Below, in pieces: positions 4,680 through 56,046 of a DNA stretch of 64,000 bases. Location of the stretch: positions 32,001-96,000 of IMG/VR virus record IMGVR_UViG_3300032323_000670; one strand, given 5' to 3'. The DNA comes from a virus. Positions within the stretch are counted from its first letter, which is position 1, and every line of letters starts with the position of its first letter. Position numbers and translations under genes: made by a program. The notes under the pieces are model-generated. The model did not search any database. It worked only from the letters and a program-made list of their open reading frames with translations, and was not told the origin of the DNA.

Positions 4680-4723
4680 GCTTGGATACTGGTTGTGGGC
4701 AGATTAATACGTAGAAACACGTA

Positions 4724-4755
4724 TTGCAATAGGGTATTTCTAAATTTTACATTTG
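4724..4755 (+). promoter_or_regulatory. Bacteroidota sigma70-type promoter candidate
   Basis: TTG (4724-4726), 21-nt spacer, TACATTTG (4748-4755), intergenic just upstream of the 4771 ATG. Confidence 0.55.
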
Positions 4756-4770
4756 TGAAAATTAAAACAC

Positions 4771-5118: not shown

Positions 5119-5124
5119 ACAACT

Positions 5125-5382
5125 ATGACACCTAAAGAGAAAGCACAAGAGTTGTTAGATAAGATGAATGTAACTCATTATCTAAAGTTAGGAGGTAAGA
5201 ACAAAAATTCTAAAGGTCTTCCTGTTTCTATGCACCGTACTCAGGTTAAGCAATGCGCTTTGAAGGCAGTAGATGAGATAATGAATGAGTTATCTGAAAT
5301 GAATTATGGTCTACAATACTTAAACAGAATGGCGCATTGGGAAGAAGTAAAAGAAGAAATAGAAAACTTGCAAACTAAGTAA
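5125..5382 (+). CDS. MTPKEKA-family small phage protein
   Basis: MTPKEKAQEL...CALKAVDEI...WEEVKEEIENL; paralog of the N-terminal half of 5861. Confidence 0.7.
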   Translation: MTPKEKAQELLDKMNVTHYLKLGGKNKNSKGLPVSMHRTQVKQCALKAVDEIMNELSEMNYGLQYLNRMAHWEEVKEEIENLQTK

Positions 5383-5384
5383 CC

Positions 5385-5528
5385 ATGTTAGACACAATAG
5401 GTTATGCTTTACTAGGTGTACTTATGTGCATACCCATATTCTTTCTAATCTACATTGGGGTATGGATGCCTAAAGACAAAATGAAAGGTCATGCAGGTAG
5501 AGGTAAATGTAAATGTTGTAATAACTAA
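5385..5528 (+). CDS. Small membrane protein with Cys-rich tail (not in the ORF track)
   Basis: Hand-translated 47 aa MLDTIGYALLGVLMCIPIFFLIYIGVWMPKDKMKGHAGRGKCKCCNN. Confidence 0.55.
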   Translation: MLDTIGYALLGVLMCIPIFFLIYIGVWMPKDKMKGHAGRGKCKCCNN

Positions 5529-5656
5529 AAACTTTAAACATGAACAATCTTAATAAAAGATTATCAATGCTCACGGTAACCGTGTTGCAAAAAATAGCTA
5601 GAGCCTGTGTTAATAGGTCAGCTAAAATATTAAACAAACTTTAAAACTAAATAACT

Positions 5657-5848
5657 ATGGAGAACAAACTAGATAGCGAAAAATTAGAGTTATCCGAGAC
5701 CATGTTTAGCCTGTTTACCCCTGATGAGATAATGACAATAATAAAACACAGGCAGTTTAGGAAAATGAAAACTTTGCAGATGTCTAAGGATAAGCAGGCT
5801 GAGTTTCGCGAGCTTATTCACAGGATAGAGGACATGTTTGATGTGTAA
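5657..5848 (+). CDS. Hypothetical protein
   Basis: 63 aa preceded by AAAACTAAATAACT-ATG. Confidence 0.6.
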   Translation: MENKLDSEKLELSETMFSLFTPDEIMTIIKHRQFRKMKTLQMSKDKQAEFRELIHRIEDMFDV

Positions 5849-29655: not shown

Positions 29656-30201
29656 TTAAAATTCTCTTAGTAATGTATACGTAAATGTCTTTTTACCAGA
29701 TGCTTTACAAGCTGCAATCAATGTACCATATTGCTTAGGATCATTAAGTACTTGACATCCTGCTGACCACTTATCTATAATACTAGAGATAGCTGATGGG
29801 TTAGCGCGGTGTATGTTAATACCAAATAGACCGGTATCCTCTTTACCTTGCTCTTCAGCAGTATCATCTTTGTCACCATCACGGTATACAGTTACAGGTT
29901 TACGTTGTACTAATGCTTCATACTTACCTTGGTGTAATCCTAATTGGTAAGCATCTACGTATTGTCCTGGCTTTAATACTGCTGTACCTTTTGGGTTCAG
30001 TAAGTTCTTCAACCAGTGTGTACCTGGGTTAGTTGTACCAGAAAATATCTGTTGCATTGGACCATTGATCAAGTAGATATGATCATCAAACTTGTTCTTC
30101 TCATTAGCTTTAGACCTGATACCTACAACATGTAGGGTTGGCCATTGATAACCGAATCTAGCAAATTCTGCTTCTAGTTCTGTGTAAGAATACTTTTTCA
30201 T
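29656..30201 (-). CDS. Putative endolysin, L,D-transpeptidase (YkuD)-like Cys peptidase
   Basis: GINIHRA...WSAGCQV (His...S.GC catalytic motif); precedes holin/spanin-like genes. Confidence 0.7.
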   Translation of the reverse strand: MKKYSYTELEAEFARFGYQWPTLHVVGIRSKANEKNKFDDHIYLINGPMQQIFSGTTNPGTHWLKNLLNPKGTAVLKPGQYVDAYQLGLHQGKYEALVQRKPVTVYRDGDKDDTAEEQGKEDTGLFGINIHRANPSAISSIIDKWSAGCQVLNDPKQYGTLIAACKASGKKTFTYTLLREF

Positions 30202-33200
30202 TATTTAATAGTTTGTATAGTTTCCATGTTTTTCAATCTCTGAATAGGATCCACCTGTGTACCAGTAAGACCAAAGAAGCTCTTAAGAAAATAGTTTGCT
30301 AGCTTAAGTCCGCCTTCATCTTGCCAAGCATATGGTCCAACAGACTTATCATAATAAGCACCTTCATCACCTGTCACTAACATCCAAGCTCCATTAATTA
30401 TCTTAACATAGTTAGTAATAGTATTACCAAATGCTATAGAGTCCATATTTAAAATGTTCTTGTAGTCATCTAAACCGTACCCTGGCCAAGGAATGAATGC
30501 TGTGTTCTCATTCAGTGTTGCTTTAGTTAAGAAGAGTAAGTGATTAGACATATAACCTGATAAGTTAAACTCTGTTCCTTGCTCTCTTGTCCAAGGTAAT
30601 GGTAAGAATCCAGACTTAGCTTTTAGTTTTTTGAAACGGTCTTCATCATCCTCATCATAATTAAACAAAAGTTTGATTAGTACACCCGCCATGATTGATA
30701 CTACAAGCTCAGTTAGCATCTTCTTCATAGCTACTTTTTCATGCGGCAACATGAATTTAAAATCTCTACCTAATGTTTTGATACCTCTTACAAGATATGC
30801 TATAGATGCTGTGTAATAACCCAGTTGCATTTGATTTGCTCCAACATCCCATCTAGCTTCAGGTTCTAAGAAGTTACCTCTGTATCCCCATCTGTTTATA
30901 AACATACCCACAAAGAAGCGCTTAAGGAAAGACATTGTACGGAATACAAGATATCTATCTCCCATACTTCTATCATATGATGCATATGCTCCATTCAACC
31001 TTCGGTTGGTAGACTGAATCTTTTTGCGCATCATTTTGTACTTCTTACCACCTACACCCCATTCAGGATCAATACCCTCTTTAAGTTGTATCTGACCATC
31101 TTTAACTTCCCAAGCTTCTATATAAGGAATAGTTTTAGTAACTCCGTTTATAGTTTGCTCTACAGTTTGATGGTGCATCATACCTCCAAATAAACCTAGA
31201 GTAGCATTCATCTGTGTCCACTCTCTGGTATTAGTTAACCAGCTCCTGGACATGAAGTCTTTTGCAAATGTTCTAGATATACCTTCAGTCATCTTACCTT
31301 TTCTACTATCTAACATCTTCTGGTCAGGATCAAACAGTTCATACATCTGAACGTTTAATGACTTAGGACCAAACTTATATATCTGAAAGCTTACTTCAGC
31401 TGCAGTAATATTACCAAACAAAGTTCCTTTAGCTAAGCTAGTAGGTGTAATTGCGTCACCTCCTGCAGATTCAATCATTGCCTGATACCTAGCACCAAAG
31501 GAGTTCTTAAGTGCAGAGTGTATATCTAATGCAAAGAAAGACATAGAGGATAATCCAAGAAGCTTATTAGTAATCTTGTTTAGTCCAACCATATCAACAG
31601 TTGCACCAGCTTGAGTCTTACCTTCAAACTCTCTTTCTATAAGTGAATTAATAACTTGAGCCCTTACTGAGTCACCCTTTTCAGTAGAAAAGCGCATAAC
31701 ACCTTTATTTAGAAAGTCTGACTTACTTGCTTTCTTCATGTTTCTGATAGCACCCTTCTTACCATTTACTACCTGTTGTAATGATCTTACTTCAGGACTA
31801 ATCTCAATAAGTTTCTTTTGTCTTTCCGCACTCTGCATATAACGCATCATACCTTGGAGAACGTCTTCAGATGCTTCCTCTGGTGTGAAATCATACTTAC
31901 CTGTAATAGGAATATCAGCCGTCTCATTATCAAATAAGTCTAGATTAACAAGTGCTACATCAGCCTGTGGAGGATAACCATCTTCCAAGTCATCTTTTGC
32001 TCTACTGAATGTTGCTTTAATATTACTTGCCCAAGATGATAGCTTAGTTCTAGCATCTCCATTTAACATAGTCTCACTAAACTCTTTACGGTATCTAGGT
32101 ATGTATACACCTAGTTTAGCATTTGCGTTAAGACCTTCTTGGTTCTCTAAGTGATAATACAAAAGTTTATTAATCAGGTTAAACTGATTTAAGTTACGTG
32201 ATTTAATGTTATAGTACTCTTCATTGCGGTACTTACCATTAGCTTTCGGTAACCATTTACCATTATGATCCACAGTAGCAAGTGAAAGATCTCCCTTATC
32301 AAGGGCTTCCTTCATTGTAACTTTTTTAGTCTTGTAGATTTCTTTAACGTCTCTCTTAAAGTAGTTAATGTTTGGTACTACACCCCGTAGAGTTTCTGTT
32401 ACCTTACCTGTTTCATCTAAGATATCTGTGTTCTCAAGATAGCTAGGATCATAGGGTACAGTAATACTCCATGCGGCAGTTCTTTTATATCTTCTTACTT
32501 GTTTACCATTAGGCATGTAGTACTCTTGTAAAACATGGTTAGCTAAGAACCAAGCTTTGAACTTAGAGCTCTGCTCCATCATCATATCAGCTATCTCAGG
32601 TTCAAGTAAACTATCTACAGTATTTACATCAAACTCACTTATGTTAAGAAGCTCTTTAAGTTTCTTAAGATCAATAGAATCTTTAGGATCTTCACCAGCT
32701 TTAAGAAACTCGTTTACTCTATCTACATAGTGTGTGGTAGCTCTCTTACTAGAAAGTTCTCCTAGTTGTTTTCTTATATCTCTAAGCTCATCAATCTCAC
32801 CGTCAGTAAGACCTAAGTTGTTTCTTCTATCTTGTATCTCATGATAAGCTTTCGCTCTTGCTGTATCCTCAAGAGGATTTACTTTACTATAACCTAATTG
32901 GAATAGTCCAAGTTCTTCATCAAATCTATCTAGGAATTCTTGATCAGATCTACTTATACCTTGTAAAGTAGTTAAGTCATCCTTGATTAATTCATACTCA
33001 GCTTCTAACTCTTGAATTTTCTTAAGCTTTGCAGGAGTCATTATACTAGCATCAGGTTGACCGTTATCATCACGGAATCCACCCAGCTGTTTGTATAACT
33101 CATCAAGTACTTCAATAGATCTTATATCAGCCTGCTTATCTTTTGGTAGCTGACTGAGTATTTCTTTCATCCTGTCAACAAGCGTTCTGCGCTTTTCATA

Positions 33201-35750
33201 GTAGGATGGTTTGATCTTTACTACAGTATTTCTATTAATCCAGTCTTGACGCAATCTTCTAAATTCAGTATCACCATACTTTACAGCGGGGTTAGTATCT
33301 AAGATATACTGCTCATATGATTTGAGCGCACCTTGAAACATACCCTCTCTTTCATTCCACTGGTAATACTTATTAGTGACTTGTCTATGCTCAAGTAATC
33401 TCTGGGCAATGGCAAGGTCTTCTCCTTGTTTCATACTACCGTCAGGATTAGTAAGAGCATATAGTTCTTGGTATTCTCTCCAATAGATATTAAGTTCTGA
33501 TAGGTAGTCAGGGTCATTTCTCTCATCTGGACTATTAAGAGAAGCGTTATGGTTAGTAATCTTTTGAAGTATTAACCAACGTTTATTATAAGCCTTTTTA
33601 CCAATATCATCTTTTAGTAAGACCTCATCTTTCTCATACACCTCATCAGAGAAATCTCTATAGAATTCTCTCATCATCATCTCTCTTTCTATGTACAGTT
33701 TATCCAGCTCATCGCTGTTTCCTGTCTCCATTTGTTTAAGTTGAGCTTGTTTGATTTGTTCATTCTTTCTATCAAGCTCAATCTCATATCCTTTAACGTG
33801 GTGAATAAACGCACGTCTATCACGTTCTTCAAACTTACCCTCTTGAGTTCTTATACCCTGCTTGTCTATATAGCCAACTAAAGCCATAAGACCTTTTACA
33901 TCATTAGGATTATACCCAACTGCATCAGTAAGTTTTTTAATTTCTTGAACCTGCAGGTTGTATTTCTTCTGTACAGCATTCATTACATCAATGACATTGT
34001 CACTAATATAAGAAGCAAGACCAAACACAACAGGATCTTGTATATTCATATAAGCTTCTAACCAAGCACCAATAGCTCCGGTATCTCCCATCTCACCACC
34101 TAACCACTTCTTAAGAGTATCCTTGTTTACTTTAGCACCTTCATATTCTCTAAGGTAACGGTCAACAAGATCTTGTGGTGCGCCTTTCTTTTTAAGCTCA
34201 CTTATAATTTCATTATAGTGTCTATCTACCTCAAGGGATAGGGGTTCTAATACATTAGCAAGTAACTCAGATGAACCTTCAAGATTCATATTTTCTACAA
34301 GAGAGTCAGCAGTAGATAACTTAGCTTCTATACCACCAATAAGGTCAAGGATAGGACCAAGGACTTCTCCAGCTTCAGCAAATGCTTCACGAGATTCATC
34401 AAGGGTCTTCTTCCACTCATTGATTACTTGCTGGTAATAATAAAACTTTTTAACCTTAGTGGGGTCATTCTTACGCTTAGATAGCTCCTGCATGTGAAGA
34501 ACCATCTTTTCACTCATAGCTTTAATACTAAACATAGTATTTACATAAGCCCGGGCTCTAGCATCAGTATACTCAAGTAACTCTTCTGTACCTGTAAATC
34601 TATCATTAAGTTCTTTCTGAAATCCTTTAAGATTATTCATGATAACTTCAAAGTCAGAACCAGAGAATTGAGACTCTAATATAAGAGCCATCTCATCTAG
34701 ATTTTGGTTATCTTGAATACGTTTGATCTGAGTGCGTGCAGTACGGTAAATGTTATTGATACTCTCAGTAATAGCTATAGCACCTTCATCAGTCTTAGAC
34801 TTAACAAGAACATCATCAATGTATAGATTCTGGTCTTTAATGAAAGCAACAAAGTCAGCTTGATTCACAGAGTCTATCTTAAATTCTACAGCTGCCTCAG
34901 TGAATATCTTAGACAGGTCGTCCAAGGTGGTGTACTCAGAGAGTTCAGAGATATTGATCTTCTTATCCCCAGAGCTCTTACGTATGAACTGACGTAGATT
35001 GTACAGCATTTCTTTCAACCATTCAAGGAAGCCTTTAGATAAAGGTTTACCATCACGCTTAGCCATAGCGGATTTGGTGAGGGATTTTACTATCACTTCT
35101 TCCTTAAAGTAATCTGACTCAGGGTCTAGTCTCCCAAACCCCTCGGTAACCATATCAATCATCTGCATACCTTCCTCTGTCTTAGATAACTGTTCATACA
35201 GTTTACTAAACAATGCTGGGTTCTCTACAGCAATAGCTCTTACAAACGGGTGAGCAAACTCATGGAAAGCTGTCTCCATGTTTAATTTATCCTTGATAAA
35301 GTATACTTGACCTCCTACAAAGAATCCAGCCTCTCCGCTATATGGGGTACCCGATGCTTTTAATATCTCTAGAGCTTCTTCCTCATTGATCATATTATAT
35401 GCTATCCCGAGTCTTTGTGAGAAGCTACCTATAATAGCATCTAGTACAGCGTTACCTGAACTAGAGCTTATATCCATAGGACTTATGTTAATTGGATTAA
35501 AGATTGTATTAAAGATGGGTATTCTGGCAGCTAACTCTTTTAAGTTATCCATTTCTGTTTTACCAAAAGCATCTGGATTCTCTACGTCAGACTCCTCAGT
35601 ATATTCTCCGCGGGCCATAAGCTTTTCTATAACATCTTCTACATTACGGACTTCTCCATTGTTTTCCAAGAAGTCTTTATAGGCTTGATACTCACCTACT
35701 GCAGATACTAAGTCATTCCAATTTTTTCCTGCGGGACAGCTATTTATCAT
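30201..35750 (-). CDS. Giant virion-associated (ejected) protein, 1849 aa, with an N-terminal zincin-like domain
   Basis: FHEFAH...KEEV motif; mostly helical; hydrophobic C-terminal segment; ATGA-coupled to the vRNAP gene. Confidence 0.8.
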   Translation of the reverse strand: MINSCPAGKNWNDLVSAVGEYQAYKDFLENNGEVRNVEDVIEKLMARGEYTEESDVENPDAFGKTEMDNLKELAARIPIFNTIFNPINISPMDISSSSGNAVLDAIIGSFSQRLGIAYNMINEEEALEILKASGTPYSGEAGFFVGGQVYFIKDKLNMETAFHEFAHPFVRAIAVENPALFSKLYEQLSKTEEGMQMIDMVTEGFGRLDPESDYFKEEVIVKSLTKSAMAKRDGKPLSKGFLEWLKEMLYNLRQFIRKSSGDKKINISELSEYTTLDDLSKIFTEAAVEFKIDSVNQADFVAFIKDQNLYIDDVLVKSKTDEGAIAITESINNIYRTARTQIKRIQDNQNLDEMALILESQFSGSDFEVIMNNLKGFQKELNDRFTGTEELLEYTDARARAYVNTMFSIKAMSEKMVLHMQELSKRKNDPTKVKKFYYYQQVINEWKKTLDESREAFAEAGEVLGPILDLIGGIEAKLSTADSLVENMNLEGSSELLANVLEPLSLEVDRHYNEIISELKKKGAPQDLVDRYLREYEGAKVNKDTLKKWLGGEMGDTGAIGAWLEAYMNIQDPVVFGLASYISDNVIDVMNAVQKKYNLQVQEIKKLTDAVGYNPNDVKGLMALVGYIDKQGIRTQEGKFEERDRRAFIHHVKGYEIELDRKNEQIKQAQLKQMETGNSDELDKLYIEREMMMREFYRDFSDEVYEKDEVLLKDDIGKKAYNKRWLILQKITNHNASLNSPDERNDPDYLSELNIYWREYQELYALTNPDGSMKQGEDLAIAQRLLEHRQVTNKYYQWNEREGMFQGALKSYEQYILDTNPAVKYGDTEFRRLRQDWINRNTVVKIKPSYYEKRRTLVDRMKEILSQLPKDKQADIRSIEVLDELYKQLGGFRDDNGQPDASIMTPAKLKKIQELEAEYELIKDDLTTLQGISRSDQEFLDRFDEELGLFQLGYSKVNPLEDTARAKAYHEIQDRRNNLGLTDGEIDELRDIRKQLGELSSKRATTHYVDRVNEFLKAGEDPKDSIDLKKLKELLNISEFDVNTVDSLLEPEIADMMMEQSSKFKAWFLANHVLQEYYMPNGKQVRRYKRTAAWSITVPYDPSYLENTDILDETGKVTETLRGVVPNINYFKRDVKEIYKTKKVTMKEALDKGDLSLATVDHNGKWLPKANGKYRNEEYYNIKSRNLNQFNLINKLLYYHLENQEGLNANAKLGVYIPRYRKEFSETMLNGDARTKLSSWASNIKATFSRAKDDLEDGYPPQADVALVNLDLFDNETADIPITGKYDFTPEEASEDVLQGMMRYMQSAERQKKLIEISPEVRSLQQVVNGKKGAIRNMKKASKSDFLNKGVMRFSTEKGDSVRAQVINSLIEREFEGKTQAGATVDMVGLNKITNKLLGLSSMSFFALDIHSALKNSFGARYQAMIESAGGDAITPTSLAKGTLFGNITAAEVSFQIYKFGPKSLNVQMYELFDPDQKMLDSRKGKMTEGISRTFAKDFMSRSWLTNTREWTQMNATLGLFGGMMHHQTVEQTINGVTKTIPYIEAWEVKDGQIQLKEGIDPEWGVGGKKYKMMRKKIQSTNRRLNGAYASYDRSMGDRYLVFRTMSFLKRFFVGMFINRWGYRGNFLEPEARWDVGANQMQLGYYTASIAYLVRGIKTLGRDFKFMLPHEKVAMKKMLTELVVSIMAGVLIKLLFNYDEDDEDRFKKLKAKSGFLPLPWTREQGTEFNLSGYMSNHLLFLTKATLNENTAFIPWPGYGLDDYKNILNMDSIAFGNTITNYVKIINGAWMLVTGDEGAYYDKSVGPYAWQDEGGLKLANYFLKSFFGLTGTQVDPIQRLKNMETIQTIK

Positions 35751-38700
35751 GATAATCCTTTACATTTTTTAAAAAACTCTTTTACATCTGTATCTGTAAC
35801 AGTTTGTGCTCCAATACCTTTATAGTAACCTTGCACAAACTCACTACCTGACTCTGTACCTAGTGTTGTTGTAACACCAGGAGTTTGAGAAGTAAGTAAG
35901 CTTAACGTAGGATTCTGGTACGCAAAGTCTTGTAACAACCTCTTAGACAAATATACAAATAAACTAGGAGCAGGTCTATTATTAGTTCTAACATTTTCTG
36001 TTGGTTGAATGTCAAATCCTACAAAGGTCTGACCCAAACCTCTAGATGGAAATACTATCTCCATACCCTGTCCCTTCTTCTCAAGTAATCTATCTAAAGC
36101 TTTATCAATTTGAGCTTTAAGCTTATCATAGTTTTGATCTGTCACAGGTATAGCAGTAGATACGGGAGCAGCTAAAGTTGGTATACCAAGTGATATACCC
36201 ATAGCTTTACCTGGCATCCAAGCTTGTCTTGTTTGACTCTTGTCAACAGCATCCATTGATACACCAGTCTCAGTCAAGAAGAAGTCATCAAATACAAATA
36301 GTTTACCTGGATTTGCAGCACCTATTTCTTGTACAGCTTTTGTATCAAGAGCGTATGTACCATTAGAGACAAACTTTAACTCATCATAGATCAGAGCAGG
36401 TTTCATAACCTCAGCAGTTTGTGTATTTACAACTGTAGGTACTCCCGGTTGATTCTTTATTAGTCCTGGGAATGGTCCACCTGTCTCACCAAGACGTTCT
36501 GTTTGCACTCTTTCAAATGAAGCAGCTTGTGTAGTGACTGGAGCTATGGTTGGTTGACTAGCTACAAAATTTTTAAATCCTTCTAGATCTTGTTTAGTAC
36601 CTAATATATGTGTCTGATCAGACTTTCTTACAACGTGTGTTGTATTTTCCATATCAGAATAATCCACACCAATTAAACCATCATTATATTTATAATAACT
36701 TAATAAGTCTCTTGCATCTTGTGTACGACTTGGAGGTACGAAACCTGGTTTTAAACGTCTTCTGTTGAATTTTACATTAGATATAACTACTGGATTTTTT
36801 ACATTAATTATAACTGGAAGAACAATAGGTGATTCTGATGATCTTGTTCCAGCAAATTCTGTTGCATAATTCAGATCAGCTAAAAATATAGCACCTGAAC
36901 CAAAACCTTCTAACGAATCCCGATCATTAAATTTATCAAACTGAGCAGATGTACCATGGTAAACGATATCCTTAACCTTACTGTCTGGGAATATACTGTC
37001 AATGTATTGAGAGTATTGTTGTGGTGTACCTATAGAAGAAAGTTCAGGATTAGAATCAAATAGTTCTGTCACACCCTCCTTAACTGGAGTTTGAGCAGTA
37101 GGTTGTATTACTTCAAACTCAATAGCAGCAGCACCATCTTTAAATCTATCTATTACACTTACATCATCATCTCTCCAACCTTCTTTTGTCCAAGTTCCTT
37201 TCCAACCTGCAGACCCTTTAGGATGAATAGAAGTTACTCTAGCATAAACAGTTTTAGTAGTACCATCTGCGGACTTACCGTAGTGTTTAACAACATCTCC
37301 TACTTTGATACCATACTTACCCATTTCACCTTCACTTCTAGTAGTTCTAGTTCTGAACCCTGCTTCTATCATATCAATAGAATGAGCGTTAGGACCGAGA
37401 GCTTCTATTACTTCAGGGTTAGCCGTTACTGTAGAACCGAATGAGTTTATACCTGATACTTTGTTCTGAGGTATATTAGCTACAGCTTGTTGACTTACAT
37501 CAACTTGAGTAGAAGTTTCAACCGTAGGCTTAGGAGATACTAGCTTATCAAACTTCTCATTAAATATAATGTTAGAAGGTATAGGTCCTGCAGCATTAAA
37601 CATATCTGCCATCTCTTTACCACTATAACCATTAAGATTAGTTTCAGAGTAGTCCGATACCAAGAACTCCTTATTAGAGTTTTGTTTAGCATACTCATAC
37701 AAACCTTTGATTTCATCTATGATTTCTTCAGGAGTACTAGACTTTTTTACATCATAGAACTTCTTAGTTACAATCGCATAAGACTGTCCTTGTAACCCTC
37801 TACTTTGACCTTGGATAGCTCCAAATCTATCTTTAGCTAGTTTTGCGGAACCTGATCCATGTGTAGGTTTACCTCCTTTAGAACTTCCTTCATTAGAACC
37901 AAATACAAATATCTGATTTGGTTGTAAACTATCTACTTTACCAGAATATGTTTTACGAGCAGCAGAAGCCTGTGCTGATTGACCAAAGGTCTTTTTGTAT
38001 ACATCTCTGATTGCTTGTTCAGCTTCAGCAGACATACCTCTACTACCAATAGCTGCAAAGTTTCTAGTAAGAGTTGGTGTTTCAATAGCTACAAACTGAG
38101 AACCATCCCATGTATACCATCCTTTTGGTAAATGTGATTGAGCTTTAGCATTAGGATCATTGTATACATAAACCGGTTTACCTGCTTGTATAGCCATCTC
38201 AACTGCATACCCAGTACCACCTTGAACAATTTCAGACTTGATTACTATTCTTTGTTCTTCTTTTTTCTTATTCACATCTTCACTCCAAACGTCACCTACT
38301 TTACCAATAGGTGCAATAGCAAATACCGCATCAGAATAATACACCTGAGCCCAGTTTCTAATCAGTCTCTCGTCTTTCATTGTAGCATACGCATATGGTA
38401 CAATTTTACCAACTTTCATCTTATTACCCCACATTTTATTAGCAGCTTCAGCTACTTTAGATGCTCCGGTAACAGCAACTTGTAATTCAGTTATGTCAAC
38501 ATTACCCTTAGGAGCATTCTTTTCAGAACGTGTTCCTGTATAGTAATGGTTAAACTTAACAGGTCCAAACTCTTGCCCTATCTCATCCCACTTAGTATCT
38601 GCACCCGCAGCTCCACCAGAATGACCTCTAACATTTGATGGTCTTAGTGCACCTGTCAAACTACCTATAGAAGAACTCCAGTTTACAAAAACGGCACCTG

Positions 38701-44700: not shown

Positions 44701-47700
44701 AGTCTCTTCCTAAAGCCGCAGGTGCTGAATCAGCAACACCTACAACTACTTCAATACTACTGTCTCTTTTTTTAACAAGCATCTTCATGCCCTGTATTCT
44801 ATCATACCTAACACTATGAAAAAGTAAAACCCATAACGAGTGAGCACCTAGAGATGTATCTGTAGGTTTACCTAGTTTCCCTAAGAACTGCTGAAGCATT
44901 AAAGAGTTAGGATCAAGTTCACCCTTTGTTTTCTTTTCAGAGGCTAGAGAGAGCTTTTCGTACATATCATCTATAGTATTACTACCCTCAACAGCTGCTG
45001 ACACAAGATTATATATAACTCTCGGATCAGCTAGTTCTATTCCGCCTATAATATTATACTTGTAACCATCTGGATTTTCATCAGTTACCTCAACTCTTTT
45101 GTGCACAGATCCCATAAGGAATCTCATTTCAGGATTTACCCTTTCATAGTCAGTCTTCTTAGTTCCGTCATTTGATTCAAGTTGATTAGTTACAGGATCA
45201 CCATCTTCTGCATTCTCAGATGTACCTTCAACATATGAAAGCTCCTCATCATTAAGAATAGATTCTGTAGTATCTAGAAAACCTGTACGCTGATTATAGT
45301 AAGCTATTACACCTATTTCTTTGTTGTTATTAAGATTCTCTAAATCTCCAAATTTATCAATAGCATCTTGAATATAAGAAAGTCTTTTTTCAATAACCTG
45401 TTGCTCAACACTACTTGTAACATTATCTAATTGATTAAGGAGCCTATCTCTGTTTGCAACAAAACTATTAAATGCATAACGTAAAGCTATCTTCTTTGTC
45501 TCTGGATCATAAAGCGTACTAAGAGTATACTTACTACTAGCTTCTCCCGCTAATCCTTCACTTAGCATATCTACATAGTCAGATATGTATGAGCCCATTG
45601 CTTCTGAAATAGCTAGTGAAGCATCAACATCTATCGTTTTTCTAACTCCCTTTTCATCAATGTTTAATGTTATACCTGAGTATAATACATCAAACTGAAC
45701 ATTCTCCTGGTTATAGGTTCTATCAACAAAGTCACCAGTATATAATTCATTAAATGCACTATTTAATAGCTCACTTTCTGTAAGGTGTACAGCTAAAGAG
45801 TTATTATCAGCTTTTCCAAATAAAGCTTTGAGTGCTTCCCATAATTTCTTAAAGAAAGATCTGAACTTGCTTGACTCTGTCTTTTGAGTCTTTGCATATT
45901 CACGGAACTCATCTGCTAAGTATTCCTCAGCATAGAGTATATGTTGCATATTACTAAAATCTAAGTCACCGCTGTTCATAGTTTCCCACTTAGCAGTACC
46001 GTGATTATAGTAAGTAATTGTCTTGTTTAGTTTCTTTACCTCATTGTACAATACCTCTCTTTCCTCATTAGTCATAAACAACTGAGTGAAAGCATGCCAT
46101 GCTTCATGGTAAAGATCAGTGCTATCAGAGCCTTTGAAAAGAGTTATACCACTCTTTGTAAACTGAGCTTTGATTTTAGGATTAGTATTAGCATACTTAA
46201 ACAATACTTGGTAGGGTACAACCTCAGACAGCTTCTTTGTTACTTGCTTTCCCTTACTGTCTCTAAAAGTAATTTCAGTAGTGTTATACCACTTGTCACC
46301 ATCTTCAACTTGTTTAGCTGTAGCTTTAACGCTATCATCTCGCATACTGTAAAGTTTGCTAGGATCAATTCTAGCTTTGGTGGCTTCAATAGCAGCTTTA
46401 CGAGCATCTTCTGAGAAGGTCATTCCCAAATTAGATAACTTTGGTTTAGACATCTCCTCAATTTCTTCATTAGAGGTTTCTTCAACCTCTTCTGATTCAG
46501 GTGTAATTTTAGACAGAGTCTCAATATTAGCATCATACTTAATGTATCCATTAAGCATCATAACATCTCCATTCTCATCTACTTCAGCTTTGATATATGC
46601 ATTATTAACAAGCCATTCTTTATATGGAATCGGATTGCTTACATATTCAAATTTACCATTACCTAATGGTGTAAGGCTGAACATGTCTATAGTTCTATTA
46701 GGAATTATATAAGACGGTTCATTATATGAAAACTGATTTTTAAATGTCTCAGTTTTACCATCTTCATTTGTTGCAGTTACGTTTCTGGTAAGAAAGTTTA
46801 TAATCTTACTTTTTACATCAGGGTCTTTAGGATTTAAAGTTTCACCTTCTAGGTAAATTTGACCTGTTGTAGTATTAATTGATATACCACCGTCAGCTCC
46901 AAGAATAGTAAAATCTCTAATAGCAACATACTTTTGTTGAGCTGAAAGAGGTTGACCATCTGCACCAATGACATCTCCTGTAAGTAGATCAGCAACTGTA
47001 TTTGCCATTTCAGGTGTATAGGCAGCCATTGCCAGCCTAACAGCAGTGCCATCAGAAAGTCTTATTAGTTTGGTATCCTTCTTACCTACACGACTTATCT
47101 CTATTGAGTAGTTAGTTTTTAAATTACTTAATAGCGTTACTGCATCAGAATTATAATTAATGGTACCTTCACTATATCCTGTTATATTTAATGGTAGTAT
47201 CTCTCCTGGATTCTTATCCAAGTACTCCTTCATATTAGTTATGGCATCATAGGCCATTGAGTACTCATTAATAACCTTTTGTTTAGTTAGACTACTGTCT
47301 TTTTTAAGACGGTCTGCAATTGTTTGAACTGAAATACCTAACTGCTCTTCAAGATTATACTCACGGATACCATTCTCATTAACTTTAAATGAAGGAACGG
47401 TTCTTATAGGAAAGTATATAAGCTTTCCATTTTCTTTAGTAGTAACGTTGTAACCGTTATCAAAATAAACATACTCACCATTTTTATTAGTAACTACAGC
47501 ATGAAACTGTTGAGAAGTAATATCCTCTATGTTTTTAACAGACTGCATGTCAGGATAAAGCTGGTCAATAGAAATACCACCTTTAACAAGTGATAAACGT
47601 ACACCGCCTGGGACTCCTTGAAATGAAACTGTCCCCTCATTACTTCTACCAGTTAAGGTCATGATTTTACCTAGCTTTTTAATAAAGCCGTAATACCATT

Positions 47701-48238: not shown

Positions 48239-51200
48239 TGTTTTTTACCTTTTTTACCTGTACAAAGTCCCTCTAAAAATTCATTAACTGTATCATCAAC
48301 CGATTGATTTTTGGTATTTTCCATGTTATCTTTCAAACGTTGAGATACTTCAGTAGGAGTAGATTTAACCTCATTATTAGCGGCATCAGATTGAGCTTTT
48401 ACATCTGGATCTGGAGTTACTGGTGTTACTTCTTTCGCCATAGGGGATATAATGTTAGGTATCTGCTTTGCAGTAAAGGTACTGATTTCTTTACTATTAA
48501 ACAAATCATCTTTGCTTTGAGTAGGTCCTCCATTTTCATTCAAGATAATTTTAGCTACCGTAATTCCATCTTCAGTTTTAGCTATTACCATTCCTGGGAA
48601 TCTGCTAACGGTCAGATTAACCTGAACAATATCTCCAACACTTATCTCATTTATCTCTAATACATCTTTTAACAGTTCCTTTCTTTTAGCTAGTGCCTCC
48701 CTTACTTGGTCTGCAGTTAGGTTCTGTTGTTGAAGTATAGGATCTAATAAACCACGTGATCTAAGACCTTTTAATTCTGTATTAATAGCTTCAAGTTCAG
48801 ATTTATTAGCAATGAAGATAGAATTCTTAAGATCCAGCATAGCGCTTGATACTTGAGGACCAGTTGTAGCCTTACCTTGAAGTATATCAAGTATACCTTT
48901 ACCGCTAGGTGTAGGTATTACTTTACTTCGGCCAATCCCAGCCACAGCATTTTTATAGTTATCCTTACCTGTCTCTGTATAGTCATCTATAAGATCCGTG
49001 GTATCACTAACAAATGCTATATCTACTTGGTTAGAAGATGCTGCTTCATTGTTATCAAAGACTACTGTAAGTCCTTGTTTAGCAAGTTCTCTAGCTTGAG
49101 CCATAGTTTTAGTCCAAACCAAGTTAGTCATAACATATCTTAGAGTTGAGCTTAGACCCACAGGAACTCGATTTCCTTTAGCTGTTCTAATTACACTTAT
49201 TGAATAGTTAAAAGCTTTAACTTTATCTGGAGTGAGTCCATTATCAATTACATTAACTATAGTTTCTGCTGCTGATGAAAACTCATCAGTAATATCTGAC
49301 TCAGCTAACTCTCTAAGTTTTTCTACTAGTTCATCACTAAACTCACCTGCTACCACTTTAGCATATATAACATTACCGTATACAACACCCGGCATGTCAA
49401 ATAACTTAGTGGTAGAATCTTTACTAGGACTAACATAAATAATCTTACCTTGAAGTTCAGGAGTAACTATAGACTTTGGAGCTTCTGTAGTAGTAGATGT
49501 TAGTTTAGTCAGATTCTTTTTCATGATCTGTCTACCGTCTTCTAGTAATACTTTATCTCCGCGGTCTTCTTTTATTACACCTTCACCGTCTTTAAGAGTA
49601 TTAACTTTAACTGTATCTCCTACATTAAGTGTAAGGTCTTCAAACTCCATCTGGGTTTGAGTACCTGTTTCACCTTGCTCAGTAGTTTCTTCAACAGGTT
49701 GAGTTTGAGTTTTAGATAGTGAACCGGGTCCATAAAAAGATTTAGCATCATATATTACATAAAAAGGATCCACCTTCTCAATACCAATTATATGATTTAT
49801 AACTTTAACACCCTTAACCTCAGGATTTGATTTTTGAAAATCATTAAATAGAGATATGATAGCAGGATTAACGTTTGCTTTGTCAGCACTATCATACTCT
49901 GCATTAGGGTCATTCTTTATGTAAGAACCATTAGCTGGATTGTTAAACTTATAACCCTTTGCTTTAAGTTCTTCATACAACTCTTTTTCAGACTTGTTAG
50001 CATCTATAACTATAAATTTAGACTCATCTATTTCACCTGCAATAGGCTCTCCGTATCTTTTAACAAGAAATGGTGTAGTAGTAGATGATGCATTTAAACC
50101 ATCTCCAAACTGACTGATCTGATCTTTACCTCTTTGGAAATTACCAAAATCAAAGTTTTGTGGAGCAACGCTTGTATGATGGTATACAGTAACTATATTA
50201 GGTGCTTGTGCTGCCTTAGGTTGAGTACCTAATAAAGGACTAATGAGTTTATCATACTTATCATAGATCTGCTTATATAATTGACTCTCGAGAGGTGATA
50301 ACTTACTCTTATCTAGTTTACCGTTTGCATCTTTATAGCTTTCTATATTAGGTATAGCATAAAGAAGCTCCGCCTGTTCTCTAGCTCTTAGATCAGCTAC
50401 TACTTGCTCATTAGTTTCTTCAGTAGGTTGTTCTTCTGTTGTTTCAGTACCTTCTAAAGCAGCCAGCTCCGCATCATACTTAGCATTGATAGCATCAGTT
50501 TTTTTACCTCCTCTGCTTTGTACTTCCTGTACTTCAGAGTACTCAAACTTATTAGGATTGATTACCTCATAAATCTTATCATTACTTAAATCTTTACTAT
50601 ACTCATTAGTGTAAGAACCTTTAGTATCAAGGTTGGTAACTTTAACTATCTTCTTATCTCCAGTGGTATGTATTTGAACTTCAAAAGTAGTTCCGTCATC
50701 TTCTGTGTATGTTCTTTTTTCCATTACCCCTAGCTCTTCTTGTCTTCTTCTTTCTATATCAGCTTTCTTAGTTTCTATTTCAGATTGAGCAGGTGTTTCT
50801 GTAACTGGTCCTGCGCCCGTTAGCTCGTTAAGTCTTTCTTCAGATATAGGATTCTCAGGGTATTCAATAATTATATTCTCTCTACCAGTAATGTCATAGA
50901 TATCTGTACTACCGGGACCTTTTACATACATAGTATATTTACCCTTTCCATCTATCTGGAACTTCACTGATGTGAATGTCTTACCAGTCTTAGTTACCTT
51001 AAGGGGAAAGATTACAATGTTTTTTACATCTATACCGAATACTTGTTTAAGTAACTCTCTATATGCGTTCTGTTGTGCCTCATCATCAGACTTATAGAAG
51101 TATACTTTAAACCCATATTTACCGTCTAGTTCTTGGAATTGAGGATTGTTTCTGAATTCTTTTAACTTTTCAAGTTGTTCAGGTGATACTCTTTTACCGT

Positions 51201-54200
51201 CTATTACTGTATCAATGTTATTTTCTGATTTGTTTATAGCATCTTTAACTTCAGGCCATTCTGCGCCAAACATATTCTCCAGTGCTTCTTCAGCTTTATA
51301 CTGCAGTCTTCTGTCTTGAGTAGATGTCTTTAAGTCAATGATAAATACCTCACCTAAACTGTTAAAAGCTAATACGTCAATACTACCAGCTACATTTACA
51401 GGTTTGCCATCAGTTCCTATTTTAGGACCTAATACTCCATATAGGGTAGGTATACGGGCATCAACTCTTAAACCAAGAGATTTGATTTGTCTTTGTACAG
51501 TTCTGAAACTATCAAAAAGCTCATTCAACATTGCATCAGAGAATATAGCTGACGGGTACTGTTGTCTAAGTGAGTTATATCTAGTTTTAAAATCAACTAT
51601 GTTAGTGATCTCATTACTTAAGTAATCTCTTAGAAGTTCATCAATTACAGTTCCTCTATCCGCTGCTCCTGGAGCAAAGTCACCTTTATCTTTAACTACA
51701 TTAGATACACGCTCATGTCTTGTACCAGGTATTTCATTACCGTATACATCAGCTTTAGCATACCAACTGTCTATGACTTTACCCTTGTCATCTTTAAGTT
51801 CAAATACTTTAAAACCAGCTTTCTCTAACTTTATCTTAAGATCTTTAATAGCATTTTCTACAACAGCTTCTGCTGGTAAAAACTCATCAAATTCTATTTC
51901 AACATCTCCACTCTTTCTTCTTAGAGTTATCTTCTTTTTACGTTTCTCTTTGATGATTTCTTCTACCTCAGCTTCCCCCATGTTATTCATCTCAGCTACG
52001 GTGTAACCAAGATCTGTTATAACTCTTTTTCTTTCTTCTTCAGTAAGAGCGGGTACAGCAGCTGCACCTTGTTTAGCTACAGTCTGTTTTACTTTCTCAG
52101 CTTGATACTTCTTTCTTATATCTGCTGCTAATGGAGAAGTTAGTTTCCATGACTCATAGTTCATACCTAGTCTTTCACTAGGATCTAGTTCACTTAGTGC
52201 TTGTTGGAAACCTTCTTTTAATAATTCTTCTAGTGCGGGTTCTTCTTCAGTTGTTACCTCTTCAGTCACCTCAGTCTCTTCAGCTGTAAGGTTTGGAGCT
52301 ACACCAGGTTGTGATAACTTATTTGTAATAACAATAACAGCTTCATCATAAACAGATGGTGCTCTTTTATTACCAAATAGTCTTCTGAGTAAAGTCTTTA
52401 TCTCATTTATAAATGTATCCCATAGAGTCTTAGACTCTTCAGTTTGTTCAGTAAGATTATCTGTAAAAGGAAGACTTTCTAACTTCTGTTGTAATAGAGG
52501 ACTCGTCATTACTTCTGCAACAAATCCTTCATTACTAGCTAATGCTAATGATAACAAAGTTTTTTCTACAGGATCTTTTGTATCTGCTTCCAGTTTAGCT
52601 CTAAGATTAGTTATAGCATTTGCAAATGCAGAGTCTGTTTGTAATGATTCTGATACAATCTTTTGCATCATAGCATTCATTATAGAAAACTCAATAGGTA
52701 CAACACCTATGTTATACCCTTCTGAACTAAATCTAGGATCTACAATGATACCGTTCTGGTCATCAAACGTACTATTAGTATGATGATCCATTTTAAATGT
52801 TACCTGTGTACCAACTGGTACCATTCCTGATAAAATCTGAGCTAGCTTCTTTAAATCTTTTTCTGCAAACTTGCTATTGATAACAGCTTGTAAAACTTGA
52901 CGAGCATCAACTTGTGTTGTTTGTGATGTAGGATCAAAACCAAACTCTTTACCTAGTTCATTTACAGTTCTTTTATCATCTTTCAGCTTATCCCTAAATG
53001 ACTGAAGATTACCTTCAACCTGTTTGATGTAACGCTTTCCAGTCTCTTCAAAGTAAGCTTCATCATACTCATCTACTAAGGCCATGATGCCTTTATACTC
53101 TTCACTACCAAGCTCTATCTTTTCTAAAGTATCAGCGCTATAAAATGTAACAGGTATCTCATTATCATCTAAGAAAGCTTGTGCTTCATCTGGATCTACA
53201 AAAGCATTAAATTTTTCAAATAGATCATTCAAAAAGTTATTAGTTAAATACTTCTTTTTGTATGTAGCTAATGACTCTTTTAACTTTTCTTTTCTTACTG
53301 CCATTGCAGCTTTCATTGCATTTGCCACACGCCCCTTCATTTGAGCAAATTGTTGTGGATTAGCAAAAGCATTTATAGCGTTAGCATATTCAGCTCTATC
53401 ACCAAATAATTTCCAGTAATCTCTATATGCCTGATATGTTTTTTCAATGTCTTTATCTAATACAACTTGACCATTCTGTTCAGCAAGTAACTTGATATGA
53501 TTAAAGAAGCTGTCTTTAAATAATGCTTCTGTTTCTTCAAGTACCTTAGAGTTTTCTGCAAAAGATTCTTCATTTTGAGAAACCTTTTGAGTAGTAAGAT
53601 ACTGACCTAAGTATAACCGAGAGAGTCCTGATAGAGACTCAAGGCTTTGTTTCTTTTTAGTAAGTTGTTCTTTTTTAGCAGCATTCTCAGGTCTATCACC
53701 TAATGCCTCAATCTCTTTAGTAAGCATCTCTACTTCAGCAAGCATGCCTGGTCTAAGAATAGGAGCTTCTGATGAAGGCATACCAATTGAGAACAAAGGT
53801 GCAAAGTCTGTTACATTAGCATTCTTGAAAGGTAATGAGTTTGTAAAATCATTATATATACTTTCCATACGTCCTGCTACAAACTTAAAGTGTATGTCAT
53901 TGCTGATCATTACACTTCTCATTTGTTCAAACGCTAAATAGTCTTCAGGTTCATCTTTTAAAGAATGCGGATTTATAGTATTCTCATACTCTTCATACAC
54001 ATCTCTAATCTCATTTGTTCTTGCTATAACTTTTTCAAGTCTTTCTTGAACGGTTCCTTTTTCTGCAGCGGGGTCTTCACCAAATGCTTCTTGTAATTCT
54101 TCTTTACTTAAATTTCTTAGACCTTTAAGCTGATCTTGGAATATATCAAATCTACCAGCATTCAATAACTGAATACTATGACTTACTAAAGATGCATCTC

Positions 54201-56046
54201 TGGTGTCTCTAGCAAATTTACCATCTCCGTCTAATGCAGCTTGTTCTCCAGCAATAGCCAAGTCTCTTTGTATCTTAAGATCTTTCTCTAATGCATTAAA
54301 ATATGCAATAGGATCTTTAGTTACCTCGTTCATTGCCTCAAGAGTCTTCTGATCAAACTCAAGCTCTCTGTCTATTTGGGCTTGGTAAGGATTCTCTTTA
54401 CCTGCGTTTGAAGGATCAGCTGAAAACTTCTGAGCTTGATTCTTAAGCTTCTTCATTCTTACAGCATCATATCCTTTATAGAATGCACTCTGAGTCATTG
54501 TCATTGGCCCAGCCATCAAAAATCCAGACAAGAAAGTTTCAAGACCTTGATTAGATGCTTGTGACTTAAGACCGCTCTCCATCATTGTACGGAAATAGCC
54601 TGAGCCCGCTAAGTTTGGATTATTATATGTATTTACAAAATAGTCTGTAATACCTTTTCCTACAGCTTCTTGATAAACCTCTTGTGTACCTTCCATTAAG
54701 TTAGCAGACAGATAGTTAAGTCCACCTTTACCTAAATTCTTAGGATTGAATACATGTTTATAATAAGCACGTTTAGTATATTTAGAAGCACCTTTTAACA
54801 TAGAGTGTGGATCTACACCCATCTTTTTCCAATCCTTATTAAATATGAATGTAGCTTTACTTTTACCGGCTGCCTTTTCTAAATTCTTTAAACCTGGTAT
54901 ACCTTTAAGCGCTTTATCTAATACAATCTTATTGGATACATAGATACCAGCTATGTTAGCTTGACTAGATAAATAACCTGCTTTAGTAGCTTGTGCTGCT
55001 ATAGATTGTGCTTCAGCTAAGTTTGGTTCTCTACCGTTATCTTTTCTAAACTTAGCCATCAGTTGGTTAGCTACATTATTCTGTGCTGTACCACCTTCCA
55101 TTTTAGCTTCAGAGGTAACAGCATTTATCTCACGTAAGTCTCTATAAAAAGTACCAAAAGCTTTAGAAGTTTTAGCCATATTATCTAGAGAGTCCCATTT
55201 AGCAGCAGCTTTTCCTGTCTTTGTAAGTAAAGATGTTGTTTGACTAAGTGGTAAAAACTCTCTTACTCCACCTGCTGCTGTTTTAGCAATTTTCCAAGCT
55301 TGTCTAGCATCATCAACCTTAGTTAACATTTTAAGTGCTCTGAAAGCTCTACCTACATTTGTTCCTGTTCTGGCAATTGCACCTACTGTTGCTGCACCAC
55401 CGGTTGGTAATGCACCTACTGTCCCAGCAAAAAATAATGCTACTTCTTCAGCTAAGATCTCAGCCATCACACCATAAGTGTAACCAGCATTAACTCCAAA
55501 GTTTATTGCTTTAGCACCAAACCCTTCTCTACTAGATGAACCAATAGACATGAGTCTTTCCATATCCTCTGCCTCTTCTGTATTAGGTTTATCAGAAAGG
55601 AAACTTCCCCAGTTAGTAAATGTACTTGAAGCTCCTAGTCCCGCTAAACGTAAAGCTGTTCTTCCTCCTCTTGCTGCATCATTCCATAATGAAGAATTGT
55701 TATTATAAAACTCTTCATTGTTTCTAAATGGACTAAAACCTAACTGCTTGAATTTACCGTGTGCGTAATATCTTTCAAAGTTCTGACCGTAATGAGAAGA
55801 ATTATAGGTAGTAAGTTTATTATACTTGTTTTCATCTGGCTTATACAGATCTAACATCATTCCATTAAGACGAGCTACTTTTTGATCTACATAAGACATG
55901 CCAGCAGGCTTAGGGTTAGCTCCTGTTTTAGGAGTACCCGCCATCTTCTGAGCATTAGTAGAAATAGGTTCAGGGGTTAACTTACTACGTGTAGGAAGAT
56001 TTTGAGCAGATTGTTGCCCAGTATTTGTGTTTTCTTCTAAAGCCAT
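48235..56046 (-). CDS. Giant virion-associated polyvalent protein, 2603 aa
   Basis: Gly/Ala-rich hydrophobic N-terminal region, degenerate zincin, PD-(D/E)XK domain (AGSIDV...IIDLKTS...QQNAY), ART-like YHHT domain, SH3/Tudor-like modules. Confidence 0.8.
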   Translation of the reverse strand: MALEENTNTGQQSAQNLPTRSKLTPEPISTNAQKMAGTPKTGANPKPAGMSYVDQKVARLNGMMLDLYKPDENKYNKLTTYNSSHYGQNFERYYAHGKFKQLGFSPFRNNEEFYNNNSSLWNDAARGGRTALRLAGLGASSTFTNWGSFLSDKPNTEEAEDMERLMSIGSSSREGFGAKAINFGVNAGYTYGVMAEILAEEVALFFAGTVGALPTGGAATVGAIARTGTNVGRAFRALKMLTKVDDARQAWKIAKTAAGGVREFLPLSQTTSLLTKTGKAAAKWDSLDNMAKTSKAFGTFYRDLREINAVTSEAKMEGGTAQNNVANQLMAKFRKDNGREPNLAEAQSIAAQATKAGYLSSQANIAGIYVSNKIVLDKALKGIPGLKNLEKAAGKSKATFIFNKDWKKMGVDPHSMLKGASKYTKRAYYKHVFNPKNLGKGGLNYLSANLMEGTQEVYQEAVGKGITDYFVNTYNNPNLAGSGYFRTMMESGLKSQASNQGLETFLSGFLMAGPMTMTQSAFYKGYDAVRMKKLKNQAQKFSADPSNAGKENPYQAQIDRELEFDQKTLEAMNEVTKDPIAYFNALEKDLKIQRDLAIAGEQAALDGDGKFARDTRDASLVSHSIQLLNAGRFDIFQDQLKGLRNLSKEELQEAFGEDPAAEKGTVQERLEKVIARTNEIRDVYEEYENTINPHSLKDEPEDYLAFEQMRSVMISNDIHFKFVAGRMESIYNDFTNSLPFKNANVTDFAPLFSIGMPSSEAPILRPGMLAEVEMLTKEIEALGDRPENAAKKEQLTKKKQSLESLSGLSRLYLGQYLTTQKVSQNEESFAENSKVLEETEALFKDSFFNHIKLLAEQNGQVVLDKDIEKTYQAYRDYWKLFGDRAEYANAINAFANPQQFAQMKGRVANAMKAAMAVRKEKLKESLATYKKKYLTNNFLNDLFEKFNAFVDPDEAQAFLDDNEIPVTFYSADTLEKIELGSEEYKGIMALVDEYDEAYFEETGKRYIKQVEGNLQSFRDKLKDDKRTVNELGKEFGFDPTSQTTQVDARQVLQAVINSKFAEKDLKKLAQILSGMVPVGTQVTFKMDHHTNSTFDDQNGIIVDPRFSSEGYNIGVVPIEFSIMNAMMQKIVSESLQTDSAFANAITNLRAKLEADTKDPVEKTLLSLALASNEGFVAEVMTSPLLQQKLESLPFTDNLTEQTEESKTLWDTFINEIKTLLRRLFGNKRAPSVYDEAVIVITNKLSQPGVAPNLTAEETEVTEEVTTEEEPALEELLKEGFQQALSELDPSERLGMNYESWKLTSPLAADIRKKYQAEKVKQTVAKQGAAAVPALTEEERKRVITDLGYTVAEMNNMGEAEVEEIIKEKRKKKITLRRKSGDVEIEFDEFLPAEAVVENAIKDLKIKLEKAGFKVFELKDDKGKVIDSWYAKADVYGNEIPGTRHERVSNVVKDKGDFAPGAADRGTVIDELLRDYLSNEITNIVDFKTRYNSLRQQYPSAIFSDAMLNELFDSFRTVQRQIKSLGLRVDARIPTLYGVLGPKIGTDGKPVNVAGSIDVLAFNSLGEVFIIDLKTSTQDRRLQYKAEEALENMFGAEWPEVKDAINKSENNIDTVIDGKRVSPEQLEKLKEFRNNPQFQELDGKYGFKVYFYKSDDEAQQNAYRELLKQVFGIDVKNIVIFPLKVTKTGKTFTSVKFQIDGKGKYTMYVKGPGSTDIYDITGRENIIIEYPENPISEERLNELTGAGPVTETPAQSEIETKKADIERRRQEELGVMEKRTYTEDDGTTFEVQIHTTGDKKIVKVTNLDTKGSYTNEYSKDLSNDKIYEVINPNKFEYSEVQEVQSRGGKKTDAINAKYDAELAALEGTETTEEQPTEETNEQVVADLRAREQAELLYAIPNIESYKDANGKLDKSKLSPLESQLYKQIYDKYDKLISPLLGTQPKAAQAPNIVTVYHHTSVAPQNFDFGNFQRGKDQISQFGDGLNASSTTTPFLVKRYGEPIAGEIDESKFIVIDANKSEKELYEELKAKGYKFNNPANGSYIKNDPNAEYDSADKANVNPAIISLFNDFQKSNPEVKGVKVINHIIGIEKVDPFYVIYDAKSFYGPGSLSKTQTQPVEETTEQGETGTQTQMEFEDLTLNVGDTVKVNTLKDGEGVIKEDRGDKVLLEDGRQIMKKNLTKLTSTTTEAPKSIVTPELQGKIIYVSPSKDSTTKLFDMPGVVYGNVIYAKVVAGEFSDELVEKLRELAESDITDEFSSAAETIVNVIDNGLTPDKVKAFNYSISVIRTAKGNRVPVGLSSTLRYVMTNLVWTKTMAQARELAKQGLTVVFDNNEAASSNQVDIAFVSDTTDLIDDYTETGKDNYKNAVAGIGRSKVIPTPSGKGILDILQGKATTGPQVSSAMLDLKNSIFIANKSELEAINTELKGLRSRGLLDPILQQQNLTADQVREALAKRKELLKDVLEINEISVGDIVQVNLTVSRFPGMVIAKTEDGITVAKIILNENGGPTQSKDDLFNSKEISTFTAKQIPNIISPMAKEVTPVTPDPDVKAQSDAANNEVKSTPTEVSQRLKDNMENTKNQSVDDTVNEFLEGLCTGKKGKKQ

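Follow-up and report, generated by a model that had tools for sequence, protein, structure and literature searches.

Cysteines confined to the facing ends of three giant cargo proteins suggest a head-to-tail thiol-linked chain in crAss-like phages

We analysed a 64,000-nucleotide (nt) stretch of viral DNA, positions 32,001 to 96,000 of IMG/VR record IMGVR_UViG_3300032323_000670 (hereafter the window), in which three consecutive genes on the minus strand encode the giant proteins A, B and C. The record as a whole is a complete phage genome of 115,976 bp with terminal repeats. Protein A (48235..56046, −; 2603 amino acids (aa), 289.5 kDa) was identified by homology as the orthologue of crAss001 gp47 and would be the first member of the chain proposed below; protein B (35747..48238, −; 4163 aa, 466 kDa) as the catalytic subunit of a virion RNA polymerase (RNAP) with a variable, effector-like C-terminal region; and protein C (30201..35750, −; 1849 aa, 212 kDa) as the orthologue of crAss001 gp49 and the last member. 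A sequence-only reading of the window had claimed that these proteins hold four cysteines, all at the two gene junctions, and that C-to-N disulfides join them into one ordered chain of about 1 MDa. A script run over the open reading frames (ORFs) reproduced all positions and codon coordinates. The sole cysteine of A is Cys2595, 9 residues before the C-terminus (codon 48262..48264, −); B has only Cys3 (48230..48232, −) and Cys4159, 5 residues before its C-terminus (35762..35764, −); and the sole cysteine of C is Cys5 (35736..35738, −). Neither the N-terminus of A nor the C-terminus of C carries one, and no additional internal cysteine was found in the trio. Stop and start codons overlap as ATGA at both the A/B junction (48235..48238, −) and the B/C junction (35747..35750, −), as the same reading had noted, and the summed mass of the three proteins, 967 kDa, agrees with the size that it gave.

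Four cysteines in 8615 aa amount to 0.046%. The early-strand ORFs of the same window contain about 1.3% cysteine, a frequency at which about 112 cysteines would be expected in A, B and C together (P(≤4) ~8e-43). By chance, all four cysteines would lie 9 residues or less from the facing termini with a probability of ~3e-10. The cysteine pattern is therefore real and far from chance.

The identity of the trio rests on several matches. The central region of B matched the virion RNAP of phi14:2 (6VR4_A) with a phmmer E value of 8.7e-18, and B matched crAss001 gp50 at E 1.7e-10; C matched crAss001 gp49 at E 6e-7, and A gave a weak match to crAss001 gp47 (E 0.011). The catalytic motif DFDID lies at residues 2248-2252 of B (41483..41497, −), and its aspartates D2248, D2250 and D2252 are invariant in the alignment. 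The order A, B, C is the same in 77 IMG/VR loci. In this phage the trio lies downstream of cargo ORFs that are nearly free of cysteine (974, 874 and 839 aa), and its DNA polymerase is 33% identical to the phi14:2 enzyme. By homology and gene order, then, the phage is assigned to the distant crAss-like phages, and A, B and C to their gp47/gp50/gp49-type cargo trio. Between the RNAP core and the terminal module of B (residues 3198-4071; 36026-38647, −) lie DprA-like, phrog_2072, ART-PolyVal and DUF7831 modules, and B homologues carry NADAR/DUF1768, AlkB-like, helicase, zeta-toxin, kinase or GNAT domains in the same place instead, so that this region looks like a swappable payload of injected effectors carried on the polymerase. 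Conserved HExxH zincin-type motifs in B (YHEAWHGF, residues 710-717; 46094-46108, −) and C (HEFxHP, residues 163-168; 35250-35264, −) mark two putative metalloproteases within the chain; in the model of C, residues 93-260 are zincin-like and resemble the anthrax lethal factor protease fold (Z 8.0). In one related locus, L032 (IMGVR_UViG_3300027983_000017), the 6381-aa B ORF matches other RNAP cores twice, at about 1456-2346 and about 4624-5710, which suggests that the polymerase core was duplicated within one chain member.

The conservation of the terminal cysteines was assessed in 318 database homologues (120 of B at 30-100% identity, 120 of C and 78 hits of a search with A) and in the 77 IMG/VR loci; of the searches for related loci, that with the N-terminal 600 aa of C returned no loci and that with the A tail returned 6. 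Among the B homologues, 115 of 120 have a cysteine within the first 6 residues and 118 within the last 10, with 28 internal cysteines in 447,540 aa. The C homologues carry it at positions 3-7 in 114 of 120 cases and at the C-terminus in none, and have 19 internal cysteines in 249,863 aa. Nearly every A hit has exactly one cysteine: it lies within the last 11 residues in 74 of the 78, and only 4 internal cysteines occur in 204,930 aa. Five A hits have an N-terminal cysteine; these share with A only a domain of about 180 aa and carry cysteines at both ends as B does, and four further hits sharing only that domain have none at all. The B homologues in which one terminal cysteine is missing are P0042, P0056, P0062, P0063 and P0077; most such exceptions, in B or elsewhere, look like truncations or miscalled starts. 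Cys3 and Cys4159 of B and Cys5 of C (the last in two C alignments) never vary in alignments at 24-47% identity and in this equal the catalytic DFDxD aspartates, and in the alignment of B tails Cys4159 is the sole invariant column.

The layout in the 77 loci was always the same: A has a cysteine only at its C-terminus, B at both ends and C only at its N-terminus. The chain members of these loci contain 22 internal cysteines in 530,365 aa (~0.004%). The C-terminal cysteine is mostly 1-4 residues from the end (at most 10) and the N-terminal one stands at positions 3-6; both TGT and TGC are used, and the spacing between the genes varies from −11 to +43 nt. Enrichment at the termini and co-variation across crAss-like loci, which the sequence-only reading had proposed as a check, were both borne out: of 186 adjacent ORF pairs, 126 have both facing cysteines, 59 have neither and a single pair is discordant (Fisher P ~3e-48, uncorrected for relatedness). 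Terminal cysteines thus occur in pairs among the orthologues.

The same pattern was found in named phages (negative positions are counted from the C-terminus). In crAss001, gp47 has its sole cysteine at −3, gp50 has cysteines at 5, 1334 and −9, and gp49 has a single one at 5. In phi14:2, the sole cysteine of gp078 is the last residue, the structurally solved RNAP gp077 has cysteines at 3 and −2, and gp076 has one only, at 3 (these are GenBank tags; the preprint names the proteins gp65, gp66 and gp67). Three further phages encode A and B as one fused protein: Flavobacterium phage Fpv1, outside Crassvirales, whose gp33 has a sole cysteine at −2 facing Cys3 of gp34; cr50_1, with a cysteine at −2 of gp059 and at 3 of gp060; and cr7_1, with a cysteine at −1 of gp32 and at 3 of gp33. 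The rule thus extends across Crassvirales and to Fpv1 outside the order. The rule is kept in crAss001 although gp47 is encoded on the other strand from gp50 and gp49, which excludes explanations by junction nucleotides or by coupled translation. Translated with table 11, the giant genes of cr7_1 (L089, NC_055895) show 148 and 60 in-frame stops, which fits reassignment of a stop codon in late genes; internal cysteines are commoner in its giant proteins, 13 in each, and the terminal pair is retained.

Splits and fusions of the genes show how the cysteines follow the junctions. Two loci have an extra protein between B and C that corresponds by homology to the N-terminal portion of unsplit C (L038, 583 aa; L066, 396 aa), and two have an extra protein homologous to the C-terminal part of unsplit B, including its last 100-130 residues (L029, 655 aa; L085, 468 aa). 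All four split-off proteins have a cysteine at both the N- and the C-terminus, and their unsplit relatives have no cysteine pair at the corresponding site. The last 100-130 aa of B recur in conserved form at the C-terminus of the protein before C, whichever that is. Conversely, the five A-B fusions (L069, 4665 aa; L084, 4777 aa; Fpv1 gp33; cr50_1 gp059; cr7_1 gp32) have neither an N-terminal cysteine nor a cysteine pair at the fusion site and retain the B/C pair. The B-C fusion of p-crAssphage (BK010471), gp44 of 4070 aa, retains Cys3 and has no C-terminal cysteine, and its partner gp45 has a cysteine at −2. In some phages all three proteins form one polyprotein (preprint 10.1101/2020.03.07.982082). 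Since split junctions gain a pair and fusions are without one, the number of cysteine pairs equals the number of junctions.

These fusions also bear on which cysteines belong together. The counts of one, two and one in the window would fit equally well if B closed on itself through Cys3 and Cys4159 while A joined C, or if each terminal cysteine formed a homodimer. The A-B fusions retain the B/C pair and the B-C fusion retains the A/B pair, and these cysteines would be orphans under self-closure with A-C pairing, which settles the topology as A-B and B-C. Homodimers predict neither the strict polarity (no C-terminal cysteine in 120 C homologues) nor the 126:1 co-occurrence, and we regard a different pairing of either kind as very unlikely. 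Two orphan donors were seen among the smaller cargo-block proteins upstream of the trio, where the next protein has no N-terminal cysteine: p-crAssphage gp47 (L008, 5588-8161), with a cysteine at −2, and a 5'-open 373-aa ORF of L084, in which it is the last residue. Such donors could form homodimer links or links to something else.

Each of the two junctions has its own set of conserved residues around the cysteines. The tails of A are acidic and those of B read T-D-x-[DE]-V-x-[ED]-F-I-K-x-C; the heads read C-x-[LI]-[STD] in B and C-P-N-x-N-x-P-E-W in C. Because the motifs are junction-specific and conserved within each junction, they suggest specific docking before any bond is made. The sequence-only reading had described a shared D..V.EF...C tail on both donors and acceptors that begin with MI. 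The latter is true of B and C; the former is approximate, as V-x-E-F followed by cysteine occurs in both tails with unequal spacing, 4 residues in A and 3 in B. From the model and from conservation, the last 260 aa of B (35750..36529, −) form a predicted C-terminal donor module, composed of an alpha/beta domain that overlaps DUF7831, a flexible linker and a terminal helix ending at Cys4159. In the AlphaFold model of this tail the alpha/beta domain is confident and the helix spans residues 246-256 of the 260, with the cysteine at its end; in the model of C, Cys5 lies in the N-terminal tip, which is modelled with low confidence and directly precedes the first helix. A complex prediction for B 3984-4163 with C 1-520, supplied as alignments, scored 0.14, below the threshold mark, and speaks neither for nor against binding. 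Foldseek found no match to the 260-aa B model at E ≤ 0.001. The C model (1100 residues, mean predicted local distance difference test score 78) gave only generic helical matches in the PDB by Foldseek and VIA beyond the zincin-like one; gp26 of cyanopodophage A4 (9K3A) was not among the matches listed for this model, which is too large for a firm negative. A profile search of the C alignment against PDB sequences returned coiled-coil noise only.

The closest known counterpart is found in that phage, Anabaena phage A-4L, whose pre-ejectosome was solved by cryo-electron microscopy (PNAS 2025). There a disulfide joins gp27 Cys1715 to gp26 Cys5 (gp26 being PDB 9K3A chain A) and stabilises the outer ring of the structured pre-ejectosome, in which gp26 has a cleft that receives the C-terminal helix of gp27 (PMC12002296). 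In the A4 genome, gp27 (1717 aa) has its sole cysteine at −3 and gp26 (1114 aa) its sole cysteine at 5. As in the trio, consecutive genes encode ejection proteins of which the upstream one has a sole cysteine near its C-terminus and the downstream one a sole cysteine at residue 5. A4 differs in that it has a single junction and no RNA polymerase and that its genome is T7-like and 42 kb long, and the authors treated the bond as a structural detail and not as a rule (PMC12002296). The trio has the same facing-terminus cysteines and is otherwise cysteine-free. A phmmer comparison of A4 gp25-gp29 with all crAss ORFs gave nothing better than E 0.04.

Cysteine depletion itself has precedents. N4 gp50 and DEV gp71 are giant ejected virion RNAPs with near-total suppression of cysteine, for which passage through the periplasm is the rationale (PMC11445570). 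The trio shares this purging, with 0.046% against about 1.3% in its early genes. In contrast to the trio, the N4-like (Schitoviridae) enzyme consists of one chain of about 3500 aa without any cysteine, is T7-like and not two-barrel, and has no junctions and hence no terminal cysteines. The crAss001 and phi14:2 trios are orthologous to A, B and C and have an identical terminal cysteine pattern; their middle proteins comprise 2180-2412 aa, compared with 4163 aa in B with its extra effector-like modules. These orthologues were detected in virions by mass spectrometry (PMC10172136; preprint 10.1101/2020.03.07.982082), and disulfides between subunits occur in the crAss001 virion, both in its tail and at the portal vertex (PMC10172136). 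Full-text literature searches returned no description of a terminal-cysteine rule for crAss-like phages. The sequence-only reading had known of no description at all; this holds for crAss-like phages, while cysteine depletion (N4, DEV) and one head-to-tail disulfide (A4, PMC12002296) have been published. New here is the multi-link chain that includes the virion RNA polymerase, together with the split and fusion rule; cysteine-purged ejected proteins and the single A4 disulfide were known.

Taken together, we consider it probable (at about 0.65) that a head-to-tail thiol link, most likely a disulfide, joins A, B and C into one 967-kDa unit. As for the ordered A-B-C chain proposed earlier, the C-to-N pairing of cysteines is strongly supported by the comparative data: polarity, invariance, splits, fusions and the opposite strand of the first crAss001 gene. 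Cysteine has been purged from A, B and C, as in other phage proteins ejected through the tail, apart from one residue at every terminus that faces a neighbour in the proposed chain. Within the assembled virion, the C-terminal cysteine of each protein would form an intermolecular disulfide with the N-terminal cysteine of the next, giving a linear A-S-S-B-S-S-C unit of about 967 kDa that would be the covalent equivalent of the fused polyproteins in relatives. The short overhangs, 0-10 residues on the C-terminal side and 2-5 on the N-terminal side, would let the junction pass a narrow channel, the chain would fix stoichiometry and exit order, and reductants in the host cytoplasm would uncouple it.

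Several points weigh against this reading. The bacterial cytoplasm is reducing and the gut hosts are anaerobes, which leaves the time and place of bond formation unexplained. No thioredoxin-type CGPC or CPYC redox motif was found among the ORFs of the genome. The disulfide in the crAss-like virion is an inferred one. The texts of the crAss001 and phi14:2 papers, in their readable parts, do not mention the terminal cargo cysteines, and the supplements of PMC10172136 hold no data on gp47, gp49 or gp50. The conservation counts are phylogenetically non-independent, the independent events being about 4 splits and about 4-5 fusion lineages. Moreover, the orphan C-terminal cysteines mean that not every terminal cysteine has a visible partner.

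The alternative that best survives, and one we hold possible if doubtful, accepts the same covalent tether and gives it another purpose: it would hold the three proteins together at 1:1:1 inside the capsid, as a pre-ejectosome or cargo complex, and would not serve as a thread for passage through the tail. It overlaps with the ejection chain in chemistry and differs in function. Because the A4 bond stabilises a pre-ejectosome, with a helix held in a cleft, the tether may serve assembly no less than ejection, and modelled B likewise ends in a terminal helix that bears its cysteine. On the other hand, the crAss001 cargo gave no ordered density, and the very short overhangs at every junction are easier explained by passage through a narrow channel.

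It is unlikely that the paired thiols are joined in another way, by a bridging metal ion or another thiol-based crosslink, although such a link would explain formation in a reducing cytoplasm or an anaerobic gut and the comparative data require only that both thiols act together. One cysteine per terminus supplies just two ligands, the donor and acceptor motifs have no conserved histidine or cysteine neighbours, and the chemistry seen in A4 is a disulfide. Least credible of all is that the cysteines have no function at the protein level, being leftovers at disordered ends (the termini are of low confidence in models) or by-products of nucleotide signals at the coupled junctions (the genes overlap by ATGA in the window), as this is already contradicted by the data: the cysteines are invariant at 24-47% identity while neighbours, offsets, gene spacing and codon vary, the rule holds across opposite strands in crAss001, and by our tally of A and C the outer ends never carry one.

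Joining of the proteins without thiols was also considered and rejected. Frameshift fusion at the A/B junction fails since B is in the −1 frame, which is closed by TAA three codons before the B ATG; only a slip in the final run of adenines could join the two proteins, and this run lacks the phasing of a classical X XXY YYZ heptamer. At the B/C junction, a slip on the upstream T/A runs meets TAA almost immediately, and in crAss001 the first gene sits on the other strand. The lysine-rich tail of protein A brings two A6 runs immediately ahead of the ATGA overlap (48235-48260, −), probably the mere outcome of lysine codons. Split inteins or trans-splicing were rejected since by Pfam none of the three proteins has an intein or Hint domain, the cysteines lie 0-10 residues from the ends and leave no room for intein halves, and the N-terminal cysteine is at 3-6 and not the first residue.

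In the human gut, no phages are more abundant than the Crassvirales. The crAss001 structure, and later a 2026 N4 paper, posed the question of how their cargo of about 5 MDa, including a multi-protein RNA polymerase, is stored and injected. A conserved covalent chain, if true, would explain the fixed exit order and ratio of three separately encoded giant proteins, the free fusion and splitting of their genes in relatives and the exclusion of cysteine elsewhere, and would render the trio topologically equivalent to the one-polypeptide N4 virion RNAP. We raise, as a tentative possibility, that reversible disulfide coupling is a general podophage way to turn separate proteins into one translocation substrate of about 1 MDa (a "protein train"), and that, as part of the same tentative proposal, the coupling has arisen or been kept in lineages without detectable sequence similarity, namely Crassvirales, Fipvunavirus and Saffermanviridae. 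On this view thiol links could take the place of gene fusions, and fusions that of thiol links, as genes split and merge; reduction in the cytoplasm would release and switch on the virion RNA polymerase together with its effector modules.

Elsewhere in the genome, cysteine is distributed unevenly. The late ORFs adjoining the trio, of 974, 874 and 749 aa (the last being the 839-aa ORF in the full genome), have 2, 0 and 0 cysteines, and the putative outer tail proteins of the same genome contain 3-6.5%. As the cargo block is nearly free of cysteine while the outer tail proteins are rich in it, cysteine has been excluded from the internal cargo block specifically and not from the whole phage. Four consecutive late proteins outside the window (genome positions 104509-109767, −) have 3-6.5% cysteine, for example 27 in 487 aa, and are probably disulfide-rich external tail or fibre proteins. 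The only cysteines of the 974-aa ORF (56071-58995, −) are residues 128 and 134; its homologue in L004 has them at 128 and 133, and several other homologues have exactly two internal cysteines, which may represent a conserved internal pair in an otherwise cysteine-free cargo protein.

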